Assembly: GCA_013112535.1 (NCBI GenBank) | Contig: JABFGI010000007.1 | Location: 43,592-107,591, forward strand | Reading direction: 5' to 3' | Source of the DNA: Pseudomonadota bacterium | GTDB taxonomy: Bacteria; Pseudomonadota; Gammaproteobacteria; Eutrophobiales; Eutrophobiaceae | DNA: 64,000 nt | Shown here: positions 2,732 through 37,104 of the stretch, piece after piece | Layout: every line of letters begins with the position of its first letter | How positions within the stretch are numbered: the stretch's first letter is position 1 | Program-made: the position numbers and the translations under genes | Notes under the pieces: generated by a model | Told to the model about the DNA's origin: nothing | Databases searched by the model: none | Seen by the model: the letters and a program-made list of their open reading frames with translations, nothing else

Positions 2732-4894
2732 CTAAGAGACCAGTTTGTTAGTGTTGTCAGTACAATGATTAGATTCATATTCCTTCGCCCACAGATAAAA
2801 GTCACTTGCCGGCAATGGTCGCGAATAATAAAAACCTTGAACGACATCACATTGATGCTGTTTCAGGTATTCAAGTTGCTCTTTATCTTCCACTCCTTCC
2901 GCAATAACCTTATAGCCTAAATTATGTGCCAATGAAATTAACGCATTCACTATAGTTGCATCATCTTTATCATGCATAAGATCGTGTACAAAACTTTGAT
3001 CGATCTTTAATTTTGATATCGGCAAGCGTTTGAGATAGCTCAACGATGAATAACCTGTCCCAAAATCATCAATGGAAATACTGGCACCAAACTCCCTTAA
3101 TTCCTGAAGCACAGGCAAGACAATATCGACATCTTCCATTAATACCGACTCGGTAATTTCCAAATCCAGACGTGACGCTTCAAATCCGGCTAAACGTAAA
3201 TGTTTAAAAATATGCTCATTGATATTTTTATCGAGTAATGATGCCGGTGTAATATTTATAGCAACAGATTCCAGTTCAAATCCTTGCTTGCCCCAATCGG
3301 AAAGTTGTCTACAAGCTTCAGCAATAGCCCAATCCGTCATTGGCATTATTAAACCGGTGTTTTCAGCCAGGGGAATAAAATTTGTTGGAGGGACCAGCCC
3401 CATATCAGGATGATTCCATCTGATTAAAGCTTCTGCACCTGTAATATGTCCATCATCCAGACTAATTTTAGGTTGATAATAGAGTTGGAATTCTTCTCTT
3501 TCCAAAGCCTTGCGTAAACTTGTCTCCATGGATAATCTCTGGAAAGACTGTGCATTCATCGAATCGGTATAAAACCGATAACAATTCCGACCAGTTTCTT
3601 TTGCATTATGTAATGCTACGCTTATCTTTTTTAATAAACCTTCAACTTCATCGCCATCTTCAGGATAAACCCCGATACCAATACTTGCTGTCAAATGAAT
3701 TTCATTTCCAGGAATTTGAAATGGCTCATTAAATTCATGGTTAATCCGGCGCGCTATCTTCGCTGCCTCATCTGCATTATTAATTTCGTTAAGCATGATA
3801 ATAAAATTATCACCGCCAAAGTGGGCAACAAGTCCTGTCCTGAAACTGACTTCATCATCATTAATGCTTCCAGAATTTGAATTATCTATATCCTGAATAA
3901 TATTGCCTAGTCTCTGACTTGCCGCCAATAACAATTTATCACCAACGTCATGACCCAGTGTCGTATTAATACGCATGAATTTATCAAGATTAATATCTAG
4001 CAAGGCAAAATGACGATCATGCCGTTTTGAAGATTCGATTGTTTTTTTAAGCAGTCGTTTAAAAAACTGTCGATTAGGTAGACCGGTAACACTATCGTAA
4101 AAAGACAGGGTCTGAACTTTCTTTTCAGCGTTTCTTAAATCAGAAATATCCTGGAAGATACCAAAGATTATTCCTTCATTTATTTCATCATAATTATCAG
4201 TATCAATAATTTGTCTGATTTGTTTTTTAGAGCCATCATTAATCTTGATAGAATACTCAATACTGTGATTCGATTTTTCCAATGATGCATTATCCAGTAC
4301 ATTACGTACTCGATTTACATCATTTTTATCAATACAATTAATTAAATCTTCATGCGACATTACATTTGAATTGTTAATACCGAATATTTTGGTCACTTCA
4401 TCAGAGCAGAAAAACTGTTTTTTTTGTATGTCGTAGGTCCATTCACCCATTTTTGCAACTTTTTGAGCTGACAATAGTTGCCTTTCCCTGTTAGCCAGTT
4501 GCTTGGCTATTTCACTAGCGCGTAATGAGAATTGAACCCGGTGATTGAGTTTAGCCTGGTTAATGGGTTTTGTTATAAAATCGGTTGCGCCTTTATTATA
4601 GGCTTCATTAACCGAAGCCTGATCATCCTGCGCAGTCATAATCATAATTGGGATGTGTTTTTCAGAACTGAATGTTGATGCTTTTTCACAAAACTCGAAG
4701 CCATTCATCCCGGGCATATTTACGTCGGCCATGACCATATCGGGAGATTCAGCTTTTAATTTTTCAAGGCCAACAATACCATCAGCAGCCTCAATAATAA
4801 TATAATCCTGTTTTTCCAGCTTAAGTCTTAATATCTGGCGAATATCCTTATCATCATCAATAATTAATATCTTTTTTTTAGTTTCCTCTTCCAT
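2732..4894 (-). CDS. Response-regulator receiver / PAS / GGDEF(degenerate) / EAL c-di-GMP protein
   Basis: N-terminal REC (ILIIDDD...MADVNMPGMNG), a central PAS-like region, a GGDEF domain whose signature reads GGDNF, and a C-terminal EAL domain (EALIRW, DDFGTGYSSL, KIDQSF). Confidence 0.85.
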   Translation of the reverse strand: MEEETKKKILIIDDDKDIRQILRLKLEKQDYIIIEAADGIVGLEKLKAESPDMVMADVNMPGMNGFEFCEKASTFSSEKHIPIMIMTAQDDQASVNEAYNKGATDFITKPINQAKLNHRVQFSLRASEIAKQLANRERQLLSAQKVAKMGEWTYDIQKKQFFCSDEVTKIFGINNSNVMSHEDLINCIDKNDVNRVRNVLDNASLEKSNHSIEYSIKINDGSKKQIRQIIDTDNYDEINEGIIFGIFQDISDLRNAEKKVQTLSFYDSVTGLPNRQFFKRLLKKTIESSKRHDRHFALLDINLDKFMRINTTLGHDVGDKLLLAASQRLGNIIQDIDNSNSGSINDDEVSFRTGLVAHFGGDNFIIMLNEINNADEAAKIARRINHEFNEPFQIPGNEIHLTASIGIGVYPEDGDEVEGLLKKISVALHNAKETGRNCYRFYTDSMNAQSFQRLSMETSLRKALEREEFQLYYQPKISLDDGHITGAEALIRWNHPDMGLVPPTNFIPLAENTGLIMPMTDWAIAEACRQLSDWGKQGFELESVAINITPASLLDKNINEHIFKHLRLAGFEASRLDLEITESVLMEDVDIVLPVLQELREFGASISIDDFGTGYSSLSYLKRLPISKLKIDQSFVHDLMHDKDDATIVNALISLAHNLGYKVIAEGVEDKEQLEYLKQHQCDVVQGFYYSRPLPASDFYLWAKEYESNHCTDNTNKLVS

Positions 4895-4943: not shown

Positions 4944-5324
4944 TTAAGCAACTTTATCCATATTGTCTTGCAAATATTTTTTTATTAATACATGAGATTG
5001 CGTAAAGATATCCTGTAATTCACCAAGCCTGTTTCTTGCAGAGTCAAGATCATTTTTAACCAGGCATTGCTGTATGTCTTCGGCAATGTTTCCTAAACAT
5101 ATTGCACCTACATTATTACCGCATGATTTAAACGAGAGTATTACATCTAACAAGTTATCTGACTCTTCTTCAAAAGCAAGGTGGATTTCCGACATTAAAC
5201 TAACGGACTCCTCAAGGAAATTCTGCAATACATCTGTAAATTCATCGTCCATAATTGATTTTAATTCTTTTAAAATTGATTCATCTATCAATGCAGAATT
5301 ACTTTTATTCTTTTTACTTTCCAT
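4944..5324 (-). CDS. Hpt-like four-helix-bundle protein (canonical His apparently absent)
   Basis: Size and helical pattern match Hpt domains. Motif region reads LSFKSCGNNVGA, where Hpt normally has HxLKGSxxxxGA. Lies directly upstream of the REC-containing gene. Confidence 0.5.
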   Translation of the reverse strand: MESKKNKSNSALIDESILKELKSIMDDEFTDVLQNFLEESVSLMSEIHLAFEEESDNLLDVILSFKSCGNNVGAICLGNIAEDIQQCLVKNDLDSARNRLGELQDIFTQSHVLIKKYLQDNMDKVA

Positions 5325-19677: not shown

Positions 19678-19701
19678 GGTGTTTATCCCCTTGCGTCATG
19701 T
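19678..19701. repeat. Left terminal inverted repeat (IRL)
   Basis: See the mobile element entry; 19/24 match to the reverse complement of 22135-22158. Confidence 0.8.
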
Positions 19702-19748
19702 AGTTATTTATCATATACTATACCCATATAACATGTAAGGAGCCGTAA

Positions 19749-20618
19749 GTGTCTGATTTTACTATAATTGAGTTCTTTGATCGTTTCCCAACTGATGATG
19801 TGTGTCTTGACCATCTGTGGCTTGTCCGCTTTGGTGCTTCATATAAGTGCCCCAAGTGTTCTAAAGAGGGTAAATTCCACCGTGTTAAGAAACGCCCTGT
19901 TTATGAGTGCCAATGTTCTCATCAAGTCTCCCCTATGATGGGTACACCGTTTGCCAAGTCTCGTACTTCTCTGCGTAAATGGTTCTACGCTATGTATTTG
20001 TTCACGACTTCGCGTCATGGTGTGCCTGCAAAAGAACTACAACGTCAACTAGGTGTTACTTATAAAACCGCCTGGCGCATGGGTCACGAAATCAGAAAGT
20101 ATATGTCTGATGTTGATGGTGACGGTCAATACGGTGGTCACGTTGAAATGGACGAGACTTATATTGGTGGTAAGAAAAAACATAAAGACTCAAGCTACAA
20201 ACTAAACCGTAGTCACTTCAAAGATAAAACTATCGTTTACGGTATGGTAGAGCGTAACGGTAGTCTACAGACTTATGTAGTAGAAGACCGTAAACGTAAA
20301 ACAATACAAAAGCACGTTGATAAGAAAGTCGTTAAAGGCTCTATCATTAGTACTGATGAAGCTCCTTGTTATCAATTCTTAGGTAAAGCAGGTTACCAAC
20401 ATGGTTCTGTTTGTCATGAAGACTACGAATGGAAAAACGGTATTTACCACACTAATACTATTGAGGGTTTCTGGTCACGTTTAAAGAGTTCTATTCGTGG
20501 TACTCATATACATGTTAGTAAAAAGTATCTGCCTAACTACTTAGGAGAATTTGAGTACAGATATAATATGCGTAAAAGCCCTAAGTGGATGTTTGAAAGA
20601 CTGCTAGGCGCATTCTGA
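19749..20618 (+). CDS. IS1595-family (ISXO2-like) DDE transposase with N-terminal zinc ribbon
   Basis: CPKC...CQC zinc ribbon. Catalytic-region motifs VEMDETYIGG, ISTDEAPCY and NTIEGFWSRLK. GTG start 6 nt after an AAGGAG SD. Confidence 0.9.
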   Translation: MSDFTIIEFFDRFPTDDVCLDHLWLVRFGASYKCPKCSKEGKFHRVKKRPVYECQCSHQVSPMMGTPFAKSRTSLRKWFYAMYLFTTSRHGVPAKELQRQLGVTYKTAWRMGHEIRKYMSDVDGDGQYGGHVEMDETYIGGKKKHKDSSYKLNRSHFKDKTIVYGMVERNGSLQTYVVEDRKRKTIQKHVDKKVVKGSIISTDEAPCYQFLGKAGYQHGSVCHEDYEWKNGIYHTNTIEGFWSRLKSSIRGTHIHVSKKYLPNYLGEFEYRYNMRKSPKWMFERLLGAF

Positions 20619-20639
20619 TCTATAATAAATCTGTTAAAG

Positions 20640-20835
20640 AATTGGGAACACTGCCCCTTTCTACCTAACGGCGAAAGACGCAGTGTAATCCCCGGCGGAG
20701 TGGCAACTCCCACCGTTAGGAGGCCAAGATACTGCCCGTTATAACTAACCGACAGTTCCTCGTAACCTCCAAAGAACGGCCAACTAAGTAATTAGTGACT
20801 GTTCGAGGCCTCAACGGTCGCTCTTACGTGGAGAA
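20640..20835 (+). ncRNA. Candidate structured RNA or structured 5' leader (unclassified)
   Basis: No ORF in any frame, and visibly more GC-rich than its flanks. Complementary pairs: ACACTGC 20648-54 / GCAGTGT 20680-86; CCTAACGG 20664-71 / CCGTTAGG 20713-20 (interleaved with the first pair, so pseudoknot-like); GGAGT 20697-701 / ACTCC 20706-10; CCTCG 20758-62 / CGAGG 20804-08; ACTAA 20783-87 / TTAGT 20792-96. Strand inferred from the downstream terminator. Confidence 0.35.
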
Positions 20836-20840
20836 TACCC

Positions 20841-20927
20841 ATGTTAAAGCTAACGTTGAAAATTGAGTTGAGCTACAAGCAAGCAATATGTTTCATCCTT
20901 TTCTTGCTCACGCTTTACCCAATTTGA
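20841..20927 (+). CDS. Possible 28-aa hydrophobic peptide (MLKLTLKIELSYKQAICFILFLLTLYPI)
   Basis: GGAG at 20830-33, 7 nt before the ATG. Hydrophobic C-terminal half. A terminator hairpin starts 7 nt after the stop. Too short to be confident. Confidence 0.25.
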   Translation: MLKLTLKIELSYKQAICFILFLLTLYPI

Positions 20928-20933
20928 TTTAAC

Positions 20934-20968
20934 CCGTCCCCCGAAAGGGGGCGGTCTACTTCTTTTCT
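20934..20968 (+). terminator. Hairpin terminator (GAAA tetraloop) followed by a T-rich tract; may act on both convergent transcripts
   Basis: CCGTCCCCC-GAAA-GGGGGCGG (8 bp with one bulge), followed by TCTACTTCTTTTCT. Confidence 0.55.
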
Positions 20969-21108
20969 GTAGGTTTATTCTTTGCCATCCGGCCTAACAT
21001 ATTATCAAACTGCTTTTCATTGCCTTTTGACGGGTGTTCTTTGATGAAGCGTTTTAATTGCTTTTCGTCTTTAGCTTCTTCTAGGGATGTGTATTTACCA
21101 GTGGACAT
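20956..21108 (-). CDS. Possible 50-aa basic protein (MSTGKYTSLEEAKDEKQLKRFIKEHPSKGNEKQFDNMLGRMAKNKPTEKK)
   Basis: ORF below the track threshold, starting 12 nt after the ImmA-like stop on the same strand. No clear SD. Confidence 0.3.
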   Translation of the reverse strand: MSTGKYTSLEEAKDEKQLKRFIKEHPSKGNEKQFDNMLGRMAKNKPTEKK

Positions 21109-21120
21109 TTAAATGTATTT

Positions 21121-21588
21121 TTAACGGCTTAATTTTATACTCATTGCCTGCTTTGAAACCTGTAATCTTTCAGCCATAGCATCTACATTAAGCCCTTGAT
21201 CTTCATAATCAGTTACAAGCTGCTCCGGCATTAATAAATAAGCAGCAAAACTATTTGCTTCTGTTTCTTGGTGACTAGATATGCTTGTATTATTGTATTT
21301 TCCGCTAGTGCTTCTATACATTCTGTCTTCAGTAATGCCATCACCAATCAAAGGCCTATGAAGAATATAATGACCTAATTCGTGAGCTATAGTAAATCTT
21401 TGTCTAGTTAATCCATCAGCTTTGTTTATAGTGATTCTAAATTTACCATCGTCTTTTTTTTCTATTTGACCAGAGACATCATCTTCCATTGTTTCATAAG
21501 AAAGCTCTATTCCTAACTCGCTACATAGACCAACAACATCTACCGGAGCAGATTTTCTATAATCATCAATTAACTGGTATGTATTCAT
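21121..21588 (-). CDS. ImmA/IrrE-family (COG2856, peptidase M78) zinc metalloprotease
   Basis: HEXXH motif (AHELGHYILH) plus the downstream E..ANSFAAYLLMP block typical of ImmA/IrrE. Confidence 0.8.
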   Translation of the reverse strand: MNTYQLIDDYRKSAPVDVVGLCSELGIELSYETMEDDVSGQIEKKDDGKFRITINKADGLTRQRFTIAHELGHYILHRPLIGDGITEDRMYRSTSGKYNNTSISSHQETEANSFAAYLLMPEQLVTDYEDQGLNVDAMAERLQVSKQAMSIKLSR

Positions 21589-21597
21589 GATTAACTC

Positions 21598-22047
21598 CTA
21601 ATCGTTATCGTCTTGAGCTTGCATAATTTGATCCGCAATAGGATCATTTTCTGAAGCGTTTTTTGCTAGCTCCATATAACTATCAACAAACTCTGGTAAC
21701 TTTTCTTCTAAATCTTCTATAACTAACTTTTCAACATTGTCGTGAACATCACTTTCAAGTTTTTGCCAATTACTAACTACTGTGTCTTCACATCTTTTTA
21801 ATATCACTCTATAAACTGGCAAAGCTGCAAAAACCAATAAGGCAGCAACTATCGCAAGCAATAAAGATATAAAATCGAGCCGTCCTAATTGACCAGCCAC
21901 ATTCATTGAGTCGATTAATCTCTGGTCTCCGCCGTATATGTCGAGAACTAGCTCAGGCTTATAAAAATAATAAGTTGCGCCCCAAGTAACGCACATAATC
22001 AATGCGCCACAAGCTAATCCCGCTAGAAAAGCTATTGTTCCTTTCAT
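21598..22047 (-). CDS. Two-TM membrane protein with an acidic C-terminal cytoplasmic tail, unknown function
   Basis: TM1 is IAFLAGLACGALIMCVTWGATYYF and TM2 is FISLLLAIVAALLVFAALPVY. Stop lies 9 nt before the ImmA-like start. No SD before the ATG. Confidence 0.6.
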   Translation of the reverse strand: MKGTIAFLAGLACGALIMCVTWGATYYFYKPELVLDIYGGDQRLIDSMNVAGQLGRLDFISLLLAIVAALLVFAALPVYRVILKRCEDTVVSNWQKLESDVHDNVEKLVIEDLEEKLPEFVDSYMELAKNASENDPIADQIMQAQDDND

Positions 22048-22072
22048 AATTTATGATTGTAGAACAAATAAC

Positions 22073-22105
22073 AAAGTTCCGAAATAGTTCTCTTAAAGTT
22101 CTCCT
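22073..22105 (-). promoter_or_regulatory. Three tandem 11-bp direct repeats upstream of the cargo operon (candidate operator or iteron)
   Basis: Plus strand reads AAAGTTCCGAA / ATAGTTCTCTT / AAAGTTCTCCT, with the AGTTC cores exactly 11 bp apart. An inverted GAACA lies at 22062-66. A TACAAT -10-like hexamer (minus strand, 22056-61) sits 8 nt before the ATG. Confidence 0.45.
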
Positions 22106-22134
22106 TCAAATAAGATACTATATCAGCAGAAAGC

Positions 22135-22158
22135 ACATGATTCAATGGGATAGCCACC
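22135..22158. repeat. Right terminal inverted repeat (IRR)
   Basis: ACATGATTCAATGGGATAGCCACC; its reverse complement matches IRL at 19/24 positions. Confidence 0.8.
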
Positions 22159-27730: not shown

Positions 27731-27813
27731 ATTAGTTATTTGAGTATGTGTTGTATATTAAGTTTTATATAAATCAAGACTTAATTGAATATTATAAGTT
27801 TATTTTAAGATTA

Positions 27814-27876
27814 GTTTCGCTTAAACAGCGAGGTACTTCTTTTTAAAAAGAAGCACCTCGCCGCTTTAGGCGAAAC
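27814..27876. repeat. 63-bp imperfect palindrome (REP/MITE-like)
   Basis: GTTTCGC...CGAGGTACTTCTTTTT | AAAAAGAAGCACCTCG...GCGAAAC. About 26 of 31 arm positions pair. Confidence 0.6.
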
Positions 27877-27911
27877 CAATTTCAAAAAAGACTATTGATA
27901 ATATGAACTGG

Positions 27912-27931
27912 ATTCCCGCCGCCGCGGGAAT
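27912..27931. repeat. GC-rich REP-like hairpin ATTCCCGC-CGCC-GCGGGAAT
   Basis: 8-bp stem with a 4-nt loop, immediately downstream of lysA. No U-tract on the lysA strand. Confidence 0.55.
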
Positions 27932-27945
27932 GACAAAGGAAGAAT

Positions 27946-29199
27946 TTATTTAGGTAACAAAGACTCACCATTCATTAATTCATCAACCGTCTCTCGTCTA
28001 CGAATTTCATGAATCTGATCACCATCAACCATGATCTCAGCAACTCGCGGTCGCGAGTTATAATTCGATGCCATGGTAAAACCATAGGCACCTGCAGAAC
28101 AGACCGCTAATAAATCACCATGTTCTAAACGTAACAAACGATCTTTACCAAGAAAGTCACCTGTTTCACAGACAGGACCAACAACATCATAGTTGGCTTC
28201 TTCCGCATCGGAAACTTCTTTAACACTTTTAATGTCGTGCCAACCGTCATATAACGATGGACGGATCAGATCATTCATTGCTGCATCAACAATGGCGAAG
28301 TTATGATCTTCCGATTTATTCAGGTATTCAACTTGCGTTAATAACACACCTGCATTACCAACAATACTTCGTCCTGGTTCAATAACGAGTTCTATGCTTT
28401 TGTCATTTAGCGTTTTAATAATTGTTTGAATATAATCACTTCTTGCTGGAGGCTCTTCACCTTCATAATTAATACCTAAACCACCCCCCAGATCGATATG
28501 TTCGAATGTAATTTCCAGTTGTTTTAAATCTTCAATCAACTCCAGCACTTTTAACAATGCATCTTTAAATGGTTCCAATGTCGTAATTTGAGAGCCAATA
28601 TGACAATCTATACCTTTAATAGTGATATTAGGTAATGCAGAAGCAAGTTCATATGCAGCAATTGCATTTTGAAATGCGATACCAAATTTATTGTCTTTTA
28701 AACCGGTGGCAATATAAGGATGAGTATTCGCATCTACATCAGGATTAACCCGCAGTGATACTGGCGCGTGATGGATATGCATTTCTCCAGCAACTTCATT
28801 AAGACGAATTAATTCATTAACTGATTCAACATTAAAGCATTTTATGCCTGCCCGAAGTGCGGCTTTCATTTCATCTTCACGTTTACCCACACCGGAGAAA
28901 ACGATCTTGTCCGGTCTGCCACCGGCACGAAGCACGCGCTCCATTTCACCCACAGAGACAATGTCAAAACCCGCCCCCAGTTTTGCCAAAACATTCAACA
29001 CACCAATATTCGAGTTTGCTTTTACTGCATAGCAAACCAGATGCTTTTGTGTTTTTAAAGCCTGATCAAATTCACGCCAGCTTGTTTCGATGGCATTGCG
29101 TGAATAGACATAACATGGCGTACCATATTGCTTGGCAATTTCTGCCAAAGAAACACCTTCGGCATGCAGAAAGCCGTTCTGATAATTAAACTCAGACAT
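27946..29199 (-). CDS. lysA: Diaminopimelate decarboxylase
   Basis: Conserved LysA sequence (YAVKANSN PLP-Lys region, GGGLGI, CETGD). Confidence 0.95.
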   Translation of the reverse strand: MSEFNYQNGFLHAEGVSLAEIAKQYGTPCYVYSRNAIETSWREFDQALKTQKHLVCYAVKANSNIGVLNVLAKLGAGFDIVSVGEMERVLRAGGRPDKIVFSGVGKREDEMKAALRAGIKCFNVESVNELIRLNEVAGEMHIHHAPVSLRVNPDVDANTHPYIATGLKDNKFGIAFQNAIAAYELASALPNITIKGIDCHIGSQITTLEPFKDALLKVLELIEDLKQLEITFEHIDLGGGLGINYEGEEPPARSDYIQTIIKTLNDKSIELVIEPGRSIVGNAGVLLTQVEYLNKSEDHNFAIVDAAMNDLIRPSLYDGWHDIKSVKEVSDAEEANYDVVGPVCETGDFLGKDRLLRLEHGDLLAVCSAGAYGFTMASNYNSRPRVAEIMVDGDQIHEIRRRETVDELMNGESLLPK

Positions 29200-34824: not shown

Positions 34825-35196
34825 CTATAAGTTATTTTCATATATAAAAAAGTAAAAAATTATCGCAAATACAATGATGCCTATAACAAGCATTTTTAAG
34901 GTTTCAATAAAATTTACTTCCGTGTCTTTTTTATTTTCCGCCATCATTTCTTTTTCATATTCTTTAGATTTTTTATGAAACTCTTTATTGCAAGGAATAA
35001 ATAGAAAGGATCTGAATAGTAAAAAAGAACCAATTAAAGTTGAGCAAAGTAAATTAAAATAATACCAATACTGGTGATCAAGTTTTTTTAATACTTCCAG
35101 ATCTATAGTAAATATATTTCCCGTAAGCAAGCCATAAAGAGAATTGACCAAAAGTATTATTCCAGCAACAAAGTAACCTACATGTATACTTTTCAT
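34825..35196 (-). CDS. Membrane protein (3-4 TM), unknown function
   Basis: Hydrophobic segments separated by a lysine-rich loop. Confidence 0.45.
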   Translation of the reverse strand: MKSIHVGYFVAGIILLVNSLYGLLTGNIFTIDLEVLKKLDHQYWYYFNLLCSTLIGSFLLFRSFLFIPCNKEFHKKSKEYEKEMMAENKKDTEVNFIETLKMLVIGIIVFAIIFYFFIYENNL

Positions 35197-35333
35197 TTAA
35201 CTTATTATTAGACAGTTCTTAAAATGTCACTTATTTTCCTCTATTCCTAGTTTGAAGAAGTTAAAAAACATTATTTCATTATGTCTGTATTGAATTATAA
35301 ATTCAATTAGTAGTCGCAGCACTTTATCTTTAC

Positions 35334-35370
35334 ATAAAAAAACCGACCTACATAAAATGTAGGTCGGTTT
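35334..35370 (-). terminator. Rho-independent terminator of groESL
   Basis: Perfect 13-bp stem (35341-53 with 35357-69), followed on the minus strand by a run of T. Confidence 0.9.
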
Positions 35371-35427
35371 CTTTAACACTTTAACTTAAACCTAATGGCT
35401 TAAGTGGACCAAGATGTTAGGTTGGAA

Positions 35428-37104
<1,677 letters not shown>

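Follow-up and report, generated by a model that had tools for sequence, protein, structure and literature searches.

The stretch of gammaproteobacterial DNA that was analysed here (64,000 nucleotides of contig JABFGI010000007.1; hereafter the window) contains an insertion sequence (IS) of the IS1595 type, and the cargo slot of this transposon holds a 337-nt region (positions 20619-20955) of strongly folded DNA, which is the subject of the present study. Its location inside a transposon had been proposed in a first-pass annotation made from the letters alone and is borne out by inverted repeats at 19678 and 22158 and by matching 8-bp flanks. The inverted repeats and the flanking copies of CAGTTGAA delimit an element of 2481 bp (19678-22158). 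The next best site for the right repeat between 20.6 and 32 kb agrees with the left repeat at 17 of 30 positions as opposed to the 21 listed in Table 1, and the consensus of the IS ends, GG..TTATCCCCTT, was derived from elements that are present twice per genome (L012/L014, L048/L049, L021/L024). Transposase, terminal inverted repeats and 8-bp duplication establish the membership of the element in the IS1595 family. An overview of the locus is presented in Table 1.

Table 1. Features of the IS1595-type element and of the folded region in its cargo slot; positions are those of the window (aa, amino acids; ORF, open reading frame)
Feature	Position	Strand	Remarks
Target-site duplication, left copy, CAGTTGAA	19670-19677		read from sequence
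Left inverted repeat, GGTGTTTATCCCCTTGCGTCATG...	19678-19707	+	matches ends of multi-copy relatives L012/L014, L048/L049, L021/L024
IS1595-family DDE transposase gene, 289 aa	19749-20618	+	Pfam DDE_Tnp_IS1595 3.4e-40, Zn_ribbon_IS1595 1.1e-7
Leader remnant	20619-20652	+	aligns with leaders of L065, L085, L088
Hairpin H7	20644-20692		20 bp on minus strand; apical loop contains pseudoknot arm CCTAACGG (20664-71)
Hairpin H6, GGAGU/ACUCC core	20693-20715		3' end overlaps pseudoknot arm CCGTTAGG (20713-20)
Hairpin H5	20719-20770		minus: 21 bp including 4 G.U; plus: broken by A.C mismatches
Hairpin H4	20774-20804		GUAA tetraloop on plus strand
Hairpin H3	20811-20859		on plus strand contains small hairpin 20826-20844
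Shine-Dalgarno-like GGAG	20830-20833	+	7 nt upstream of ATG at 20841; read from sequence
28-codon ORF, MLKLTLKIELSYKQAICFILFLLTLYPI	20841-20927	+	28-aa peptide; passes 10-of-15 hydrophobic rule
Hairpin H2	20860-20925		overlaps hydrophobic half of ORF
Intrinsic terminator, CCGTCCCCC-GAAA-GGGGGCGG and T-rich tail	20934-20965	+	hairpin 20934-54; terminator scan
Conserved 50-aa gene	20956-21108	-	convergent with transposase gene; tblastn matches in >40 related loci
M78 (ImmA/IrrE) peptidase passenger, CapP-like	21121-21588	-	Pfam Peptidase_M78 3.3e-19; PADLOC capP 6.1e-31
149-aa passenger protein, two hydrophobic helices	21598-22047	-	rare
Promoter-like TTGAAT-17-TATAGT, TG before -10	22117-22145	-	in right IS end, reads inward to passenger operon
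Right inverted repeat, degenerate	22129-22158	-	21/30 positions match reverse complement of left repeat
Target-site duplication, right copy, CAGTTGAA	22159-22166		read from sequence

The region is richer in G+C (0.46-0.48) than its flanks (0.33-0.40), in line with the first-pass description of an island in AT-rich surroundings, and the coordinates and sequences given there agree with a direct reading of the DNA. The accompanying statement that neither strand carries an ORF is literally untrue for the minus strand, which contains an 84-codon open frame (20791-20540) extending into the antisense of the transposase gene as well as mechanical ORFs of 58 and 32 aa. All six frames, except this one and the 28-codon ORF of the plus strand, are interrupted by stops. 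The 84-codon frame has no match among 1.84 billion protein representatives. What had been seen in the sequence is real, with the wording about ORFs being loose and the proposed pseudoknot being its weak part (see below).

The heavy self-complementarity that had been noticed by eye exceeds chance expectation on both strands. Folding of a 357-nt stretch yielded -113.6 kcal/mol for the plus strand (z = -4.6 against dinucleotide shuffles) and -140.2 kcal/mol for the minus strand (z = -6.8), and none of the shuffles folded as well on either strand. In a composition-corrected scan of 750 segments of 340 nt across the 64 kb, the region (z = -5.8 minus, -3.8 plus) ranks first or second. Only one comparable outlier is found elsewhere, namely, the intergenic stretch 27750-27950 (z = -5.0 and -3.7), which consists of long near-perfect palindromes such as ggtttcgcctaaagcggcgaggtgcttcttttt / aaaaagaagtacctcgctgtttaagcgaaac and has no match in Rfam; a further outlier of the same scan is located at about 35191-35530 (z = -3.8 minus, -2.8 plus).

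The predicted fold is a chain of seven local hairpins, numbered H7 to H1 from left to right, which are mutually unrelated and lack internal direct repeats. The two strands of this chain give conflicting signals. The domain 20640-20772 folds on the minus strand with -69.6 kcal/mol (z = -7.9) and seven G.U pairs, as compared with -46.3 kcal/mol (z = -4.4) and no G.U pair on the plus strand, and the G.U pairs of three sub-regions sum up to 14 on the minus and three on the plus strand. As a G.U pair on one strand corresponds to an A.C mismatch on the other, this asymmetry is the mark expected of selection on a minus-strand RNA. The antisense of what would be the leader of the 28-codon ORF is the most stable RNA domain in the predicted fold of the region, and H7 is followed on the minus strand by AAUUCUUUAA, which results in a terminator-like site at 20657-20645. 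The signals confined to the plus strand are the terminator with its T tract, two GNRA tetraloops (GAAA and GUAA) and the Shine-Dalgarno (SD) sequence with its ORF.

The pseudoknot-like arrangement reported in the first-pass annotation is correct with respect to the positions, the pairing and the interleaving of the arms. ACACTGC (20648-54) pairs with GCAGTGT (20680-86) over 7 bp and CCTAACGG (20664-71) with CCGTTAGG (20713-20) over 8 bp, and the four arms follow each other in the order A-B-A'-B'. The case for an actual pseudoknot, on the other hand, did not stand up to the calculations: an interleaved pair of 7 and 8 bp arises in 93 of 3000 dinucleotide shuffles (3.1%), and the -13.6 kcal/mol of the 8-bp helix has to be balanced against the cost of freeing its arms from the nested hairpins (+12.2 kcal/mol plus, +16.9 kcal/mol minus). 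A stable pseudoknot was therefore rejected as energy-neutral at best, and according to these energies the 8-bp helix would represent a competing rather than an additional pairing.

The right half of the region contains the elements of a small gene. Both the GGAG motif and the 28-codon ORF with a hydrophobic stretch were recovered as first described. According to the rule of Fozo et al. for type I toxins of less than 50 aa, at least 10 of 15 residues are I, V, L, F, C, M or A (PMC2887945); the stretch QAICFILFLLTLYPI of the peptide, with 11 of 15, complies with it. ATG-initiated ORFs of 16-70 aa with an SD and such a hydrophobic stretch occur four times in the 64 kb, which corresponds to about 0.02 expected per 337 nt. 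The hairpin with a GAAA tetraloop and a T-rich tail, also spotted at first sight, was called as a plus-strand terminator by the scan; it begins 6 nt past the stop of the ORF, and its T tail, read on the other strand, forms the Lys codons at the close of the 50-aa gene. In the predicted plus-strand ensemble the AUG and G20830-31, i.e. half of the SD, are paired at a probability of 0.99-1.0, since they are sequestered by the small hairpin 20826-20844 (pairing probabilities 0.92-1.0).

The genomic context of the region was compared among 75 loci with related transposases, which were obtained by scanning one genome per species, and 23 further loci that were added later (98 in total). More than 40 of the 75 loci share the conserved 50-aa gene, which in 29 of them directly adjoins or overlaps the transposase gene at its 3' end; in eight loci the two genes are separated by 260-1280 nt of unrelated DNA. 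The closest relatives retrieved via the protein collection, whose transposases are 81-89% identical, likewise harbor unrelated DNA in this slot. Overall, the number of relatives with unrelated cargo there amounts to about 15. The slot DNA of the relatives consists mostly of small genes, several of them unknowns; among the others are a Fic/Doc toxin with its partner (L002; 1.9e-10), a PemK/MazF toxin (L003; 2.1e-10), GIY-YIG-like genes (L065, L097) and a DUF4760 gene (L095). The cargo is located on the minus strand in L002, L003, L025, L083, L095 and L098. In L065 (3871-3917), L085 (1001-1048) and L088 (4371-4416), the differing ORFs of the plus-strand cargo are preceded by one common leader, about 45 nt long, with the pattern CTATACT..TGTTC..GGAG..GAACAATG. 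The window retains the first 25-33 nt of this leader including, at 20621-26, the perfect -10 hexamer TATAAT, which is accompanied by a poor -35 box; the SD has been lost and CTG is found in place of ATG. The plus-strand cargo of L006 ends in a hairpin with a T tract that represents the tail of the 50-aa gene, as it does in the window. Judged from this comparison, the region is the passenger of a fast-changing cargo slot.

Several further observations concern the slots of the relatives. The shared leader comprises a -10-like CTATACT, an SD and an ATG, the ORFs behind the ATG are unrelated, and the arrangement looks like a fixed expression platform with swapped cargo. Another common leader, non-coding and about 290 nt long, is present in the slots of L082 (2412-2691) and L097 (3871-4174); it contains a promoter-like TTGATT-17-TAGAAT and precedes small ORFs that differ between the two loci (48 aa and 99 aa, respectively, the latter GIY-YIG-like). 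In L003, a G+C-rich stretch of 130 nt (3874-4000) adjacent to the PemK/MazF gene folds well (z = -4.0 and -3.3) and has no sequence similarity to the region of the window.

The collection of homologues that had been suggested at the outset was undertaken, and no diverged homologue of the DNA, the fold or the peptide was detected in the collections searched. Screening of the 64 kb with the Rfam covariance models retrieved no match at the gathering score, neither to riboswitches, ribozymes, tmRNA, RNase P, 6S, SRP, group I/II introns, HEARO, OLE, ROOL, GOLLD and others nor to the models of toxin mRNAs and antitoxin RNAs. In the first-pass annotation, no match by eye had been seen to tmRNA, RNase P, SRP, 6S, common riboswitches or domain V of group II introns. 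At E values up to 10, the segment 19400-21200 gave only a chance CRISPR-repeat match on the terminator hairpin (17.9 bits, cut-off 39) and three matches inside the transposase gene, and ARAGORN detected neither a tRNA nor a tmRNA. Comparisons with phages and plasmids (blastn in 'distant' mode) and with the 75 plus 23 related loci (nhmmer, and blastn with a word size of 7) were equally without a match; the additional 23 loci included the contigs for the members of the 90% cluster of the transposase except P0127 (Tara). Exact searches were negative for the H7 loop together with its pseudoknot partner in viral and metagenome contigs, for a 22-mer from H7 in viral contigs and, in both kinds of contigs, for a 19-mer from H5. 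The covariance model built for the domain 20640-20772 (minus strand) recovered only the window itself from 589 kb of related loci. Contigs with the same proteins stem from six sequencing runs, and the six that were retrieved are all 100% identical over up to 4 kb, which is indicative of the same strain; the runs with this strain are SRR7904086/88, SRR10579382/84 and DRR538838/40.

Several candidate affiliations were discarded. A tie of the region to the genes of the 149-aa protein and the M78 peptidase was rejected because L086 carries this module without the region. Descent from GIY-YIG genes or other cargo of the relatives was rejected on the basis of global alignments (z < 1.5), and the notion of a decayed coding gene, considered by the first-pass annotation as an explanation that would overturn its own, gained no support, given that there is neither a protein remnant nor any likeness to other cargo. 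An integron attC-like site at CCTAAC/GTTAGG was dropped, as the two arms enclose a sequence without self-complementarity and GTTAGGA departs from GTTRRRY at its last position. A role in transposition of the bridge RNA or omega RNA kind was likewise rejected: no relative has the region, which accordingly is not part of the transposition machinery. The bridge RNA of IS110, the omega RNA of TnpB/IscB and RNA-OUT of IS10 do share with it the presence of a folded RNA-like region beside the transposase gene and inside the element. However, those RNAs are conserved together with the transposase and needed for its action or control, whereas the region of the window is absent from every relative, including those whose transposases are 86-89% identical.

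Our best guess, put forward as a tentative one, is that the region represents a candidate type I-like small toxin cassette, carried as cargo of the insertion sequence, in which the start site is occluded and the antisense strand strongly folded. On the plus strand, an RNA of about 330 nt would begin just past the stop of the transposase gene, originating either from the leftover -10 hexamer at 20621-26 or from transcriptional read-through of the transposase gene. It would consist of a hairpin-rich leader of 207 nt and the 28-codon ORF for a short hydrophobic peptide and would end at the GAAA-loop terminator. Its translation would normally be blocked, with the AUG and half of the SD held in the local hairpin. 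Transcription of the opposite strand may start at a weak promoter inside the region or at the inward one of the passenger operon, and the resulting minus-strand RNA, fully complementary and far better folded over 20640-20772, would act as an antisense repressor. The module could thereby help to keep the transposon in its host, as is expected of the Doc and PemK genes in the slots of the relatives. The two transcripts, the translation of the ORF, the toxicity of its product and the antisense control are what we infer from this layout.

Type I loci such as hok/sok and zorO/orzO are built in this way, combining a blocked start site with a long leader and a stable antisense RNA. The comparison can be extended to the type I loci with long structured leaders in general (hok/sok, tisB/istR-1, shoB/ohsC, zorO/orzO, dinQ/agrB), with which the region shares a hydrophobic peptide of less than 30 aa, encoded close to the 3' end of an RNA some 330 nt long (predicted here), a start site in secondary structure, a terminator directly past the ORF, a highly structured opposite strand of the leader and the location on a mobile element. 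It differs from them in that no relation to a toxin family, no antitoxin promoter, no charged C-terminal cluster, no tandem duplication and no homologue was found, and in being known from its sequence alone; the likeness would accordingly be one of layout only. The proposal of a type I toxin mRNA in the first-pass annotation thus stands as regards SD, hydrophobic ORF, terminator and long leader, whereas antitoxin promoter, homologue and toxin family are missing. The plus-strand layout also fits the slot, in which the ORF of the relatives follows a shared leader, the cargo of L006 has the same ending and the leaders of L082 and L097 reach about 290 nt. Since small expressed genes, among them several toxin genes, are the usual content of the slot, a functional cassette is likelier than junk. 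A type I cassette moreover would reconcile the conflicting signals of the two strands.

Several results weigh against this interpretation. The peptide has no Pfam or NCBIfam match at E values up to 10 and falls outside all described toxin families (Hok, Ldr/Fst, TisB, Ibs, ShoB, ZorO, DinQ and others). Together with its stop-to-stop frame it found no candidate homologue among 5.8 billion proteins, and the back-translated pattern of YKQAICFI gave only two chance matches in viral contigs, both within unrelated frames. Its C-terminus (TLYPI) contains one aromatic residue and no charged one, and it appears to lack the cluster of charged or polar residues that type I toxins usually have. The ORF is situated wholly inside the hairpins H3 and H2 and could therefore be a by-product of a structured RNA. 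With no homologue of DNA, fold or peptide in the collections searched, the toxin interpretation can draw neither on a conserved ORF nor on covariation. Inside the region no promoter with at least 9 of 12 consensus positions is present for either RNA; the best internal candidate on the minus strand reaches 8 of 12, and the domain 20640-20772 ends on this strand at the terminator-like site. Finally, the strongest RNA-level signal comes from the strand opposite to the ORF, and the G.U asymmetry suits a non-coding minus-strand RNA at least as well.

Hardly less likely than the toxin cassette, itself a tentative choice, is an RNA without coding function. The 28-codon ORF of the plus strand would then be incidental, and the structured minus-strand RNA would be either the 3' part of the passenger operon (149-aa protein, M78 peptidase, 50-aa protein) or a separate small RNA that ends at H7 and AAUUCUUUAA just before the transposase gene. 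Such an RNA might stabilise the operon transcript, interact with a partner or keep antisense transcription from entering the transposase gene. The better fold of the minus strand, both overall and over 20640-20772, and the excess of G.U pairs on it are the pattern expected if this RNA were selected, and selection of this kind is the simpler explanation of the asymmetry, part of which could nevertheless be due to the C- and A-rich composition of the plus strand. The promoter-like site in the right IS end would drive the minus strand, the terminator-like site lies at the far end of the same strand, and minus-strand cargo occupies the slot in six of the relatives. Read-through from the operon would be hindered, however, by the GAAA hairpin with its T tract, a plus-strand terminator placed right past the stop of the 50-aa gene, and the GNRA loops exist only when the plus strand is read. 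The stand-alone structured RNA that the first-pass annotation had offered as a second possibility stays equally alive, with the absence of an Rfam family on either strand and of a homologue, and hence of covariation, counting against it.

It is rather unlikely that the region is devoid of a dedicated function, i.e. that it is foreign or reshuffled DNA left behind after an exchange of cargo, with hairpins serving at most as a two-way transcription stop between convergent genes. The degenerate state of the cargo leader, with its lost SD and the replacement of ATG by CTG, would be compatible with such a remnant, and so would the terminator-like site at the far end of each strand, the occurrence of the region in one strain only and the fast turnover of the slot even among transposases that are about 83-89% identical (78-84% at the DNA level). 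The excess of folding (z = -5.8 to -7.9) is nonetheless unexpected for random or decaying DNA, and neither similarity to other cargo nor a protein remnant was found. The two genes simply overlap in the 29 cargo-free relatives, thereby suggesting that no insulator is needed between them. We regard it as less probable still that the region is a new, RNA-only passenger module, whose stable multi-hairpin minus-strand RNA would serve as an addiction, anti-defence or regulatory RNA in a cassette-like 'expression slot' that the IS1595 lineage uses for swapping small cargo. The least credible explanation is that a small mobile element of the non-autonomous type, or else a group of palindromic repeats, has inserted between the two genes: elements of the REP, BIME, ERIC or MITE kind prefer sites between convergent genes, and their transcripts form stable hairpins, but there is no second copy in the 64 kb or in the 98 loci of the relatives, the seven hairpins are unrelated without tandem repeats, and neither terminal inverted repeats nor a flanking duplication beyond an 8-nt chance match are present.

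With respect to other toxin-antitoxin (TA) systems, a type III ToxI-like array was rejected, as no tandem repeat in 19-29 kb overlaps the region and internal direct repeats are absent. Antitoxins of the ToxI type have in common with the region an RNA with pseudoknot arms, a stable pseudoknot being unsupported here, and the location on a mobile element with TA cargo. They differ by tandem direct repeats of about 34-36 nt beside a ToxN-like endoribonuclease gene, neither of which is found at the region of the window.

Insertion sequences of the IS1595 family with passenger genes have been noted for several subgroups in ISfinder. The element of the window shares with them the DDE transposase with its N-terminal zinc ribbon, the inverted repeats, the 8-bp duplication and the presence of further genes in the stretch from the transposase gene to the right end. 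Its lineage is distinguished by the conserved convergent 50-aa gene with a fast-changing slot beside it, and in the window this slot contains mostly non-coding, strongly folded DNA instead of an ordinary gene. If the region is a type I module, it would represent a new toxin family that travels as transposon cargo in uncultured marine or freshwater Gammaproteobacteria, and it would exemplify how an insertion sequence can secure its retention by itself; if its product is a non-coding RNA, the insertion sequence would be one of the rare ones that have an RNA gene for cargo. As a single unreplicated sequence from one strain, it is a lead for experiment rather than a finding. The transposon context is arguably more interesting, comprising a conserved tiny convergent gene, a swap-prone slot with toxins and nucleases, and signs of site-specific insertion.

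The last point is based on the distribution of the IS lineage, which resides between a histidine-kinase gene and DUF4124 genes in about ten related genomes (including L065, L083, L085, L088, L095 and L097). The element always adjoins a conserved ...AGCAGAC flank, and its orientation varies, with L088-L094 and L097 being inverted as compared with the window. Within each genome the 8-bp direct repeats are perfect, and they differ among genomes (CAGTTGAA, CACCTGCA, CATCTATA, CAGAATCA, CATATCGT, CATTTGGA, CACCTGAA), which points to repeated site-specific insertion rather than to one old insertion. Insertion by this lineage appears to be site-specific, with a single chromosomal position being used in many related bacteria and in either orientation.

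Further observations concern the other genes of this IS lineage. The product of the 50-aa gene (50-55 aa in the lineage) belongs to no Pfam family and exhibits a weak HigA-like 'addiction module antidote' match (E = 0.0036) under the family cut-off; the gene looks like an undescribed accessory gene of the IS1595 lineage. The 149-aa protein has only two homologues among 5.8 billion proteins, and each of the two is encoded beside a gene for an M78 peptidase. In a genome of Parasphingorhabdus that has two IS copies (L039, L067), the passenger segment is bounded by a perfect inverted repeat of 26-31 nt (3971-4001 / 4990-5020).

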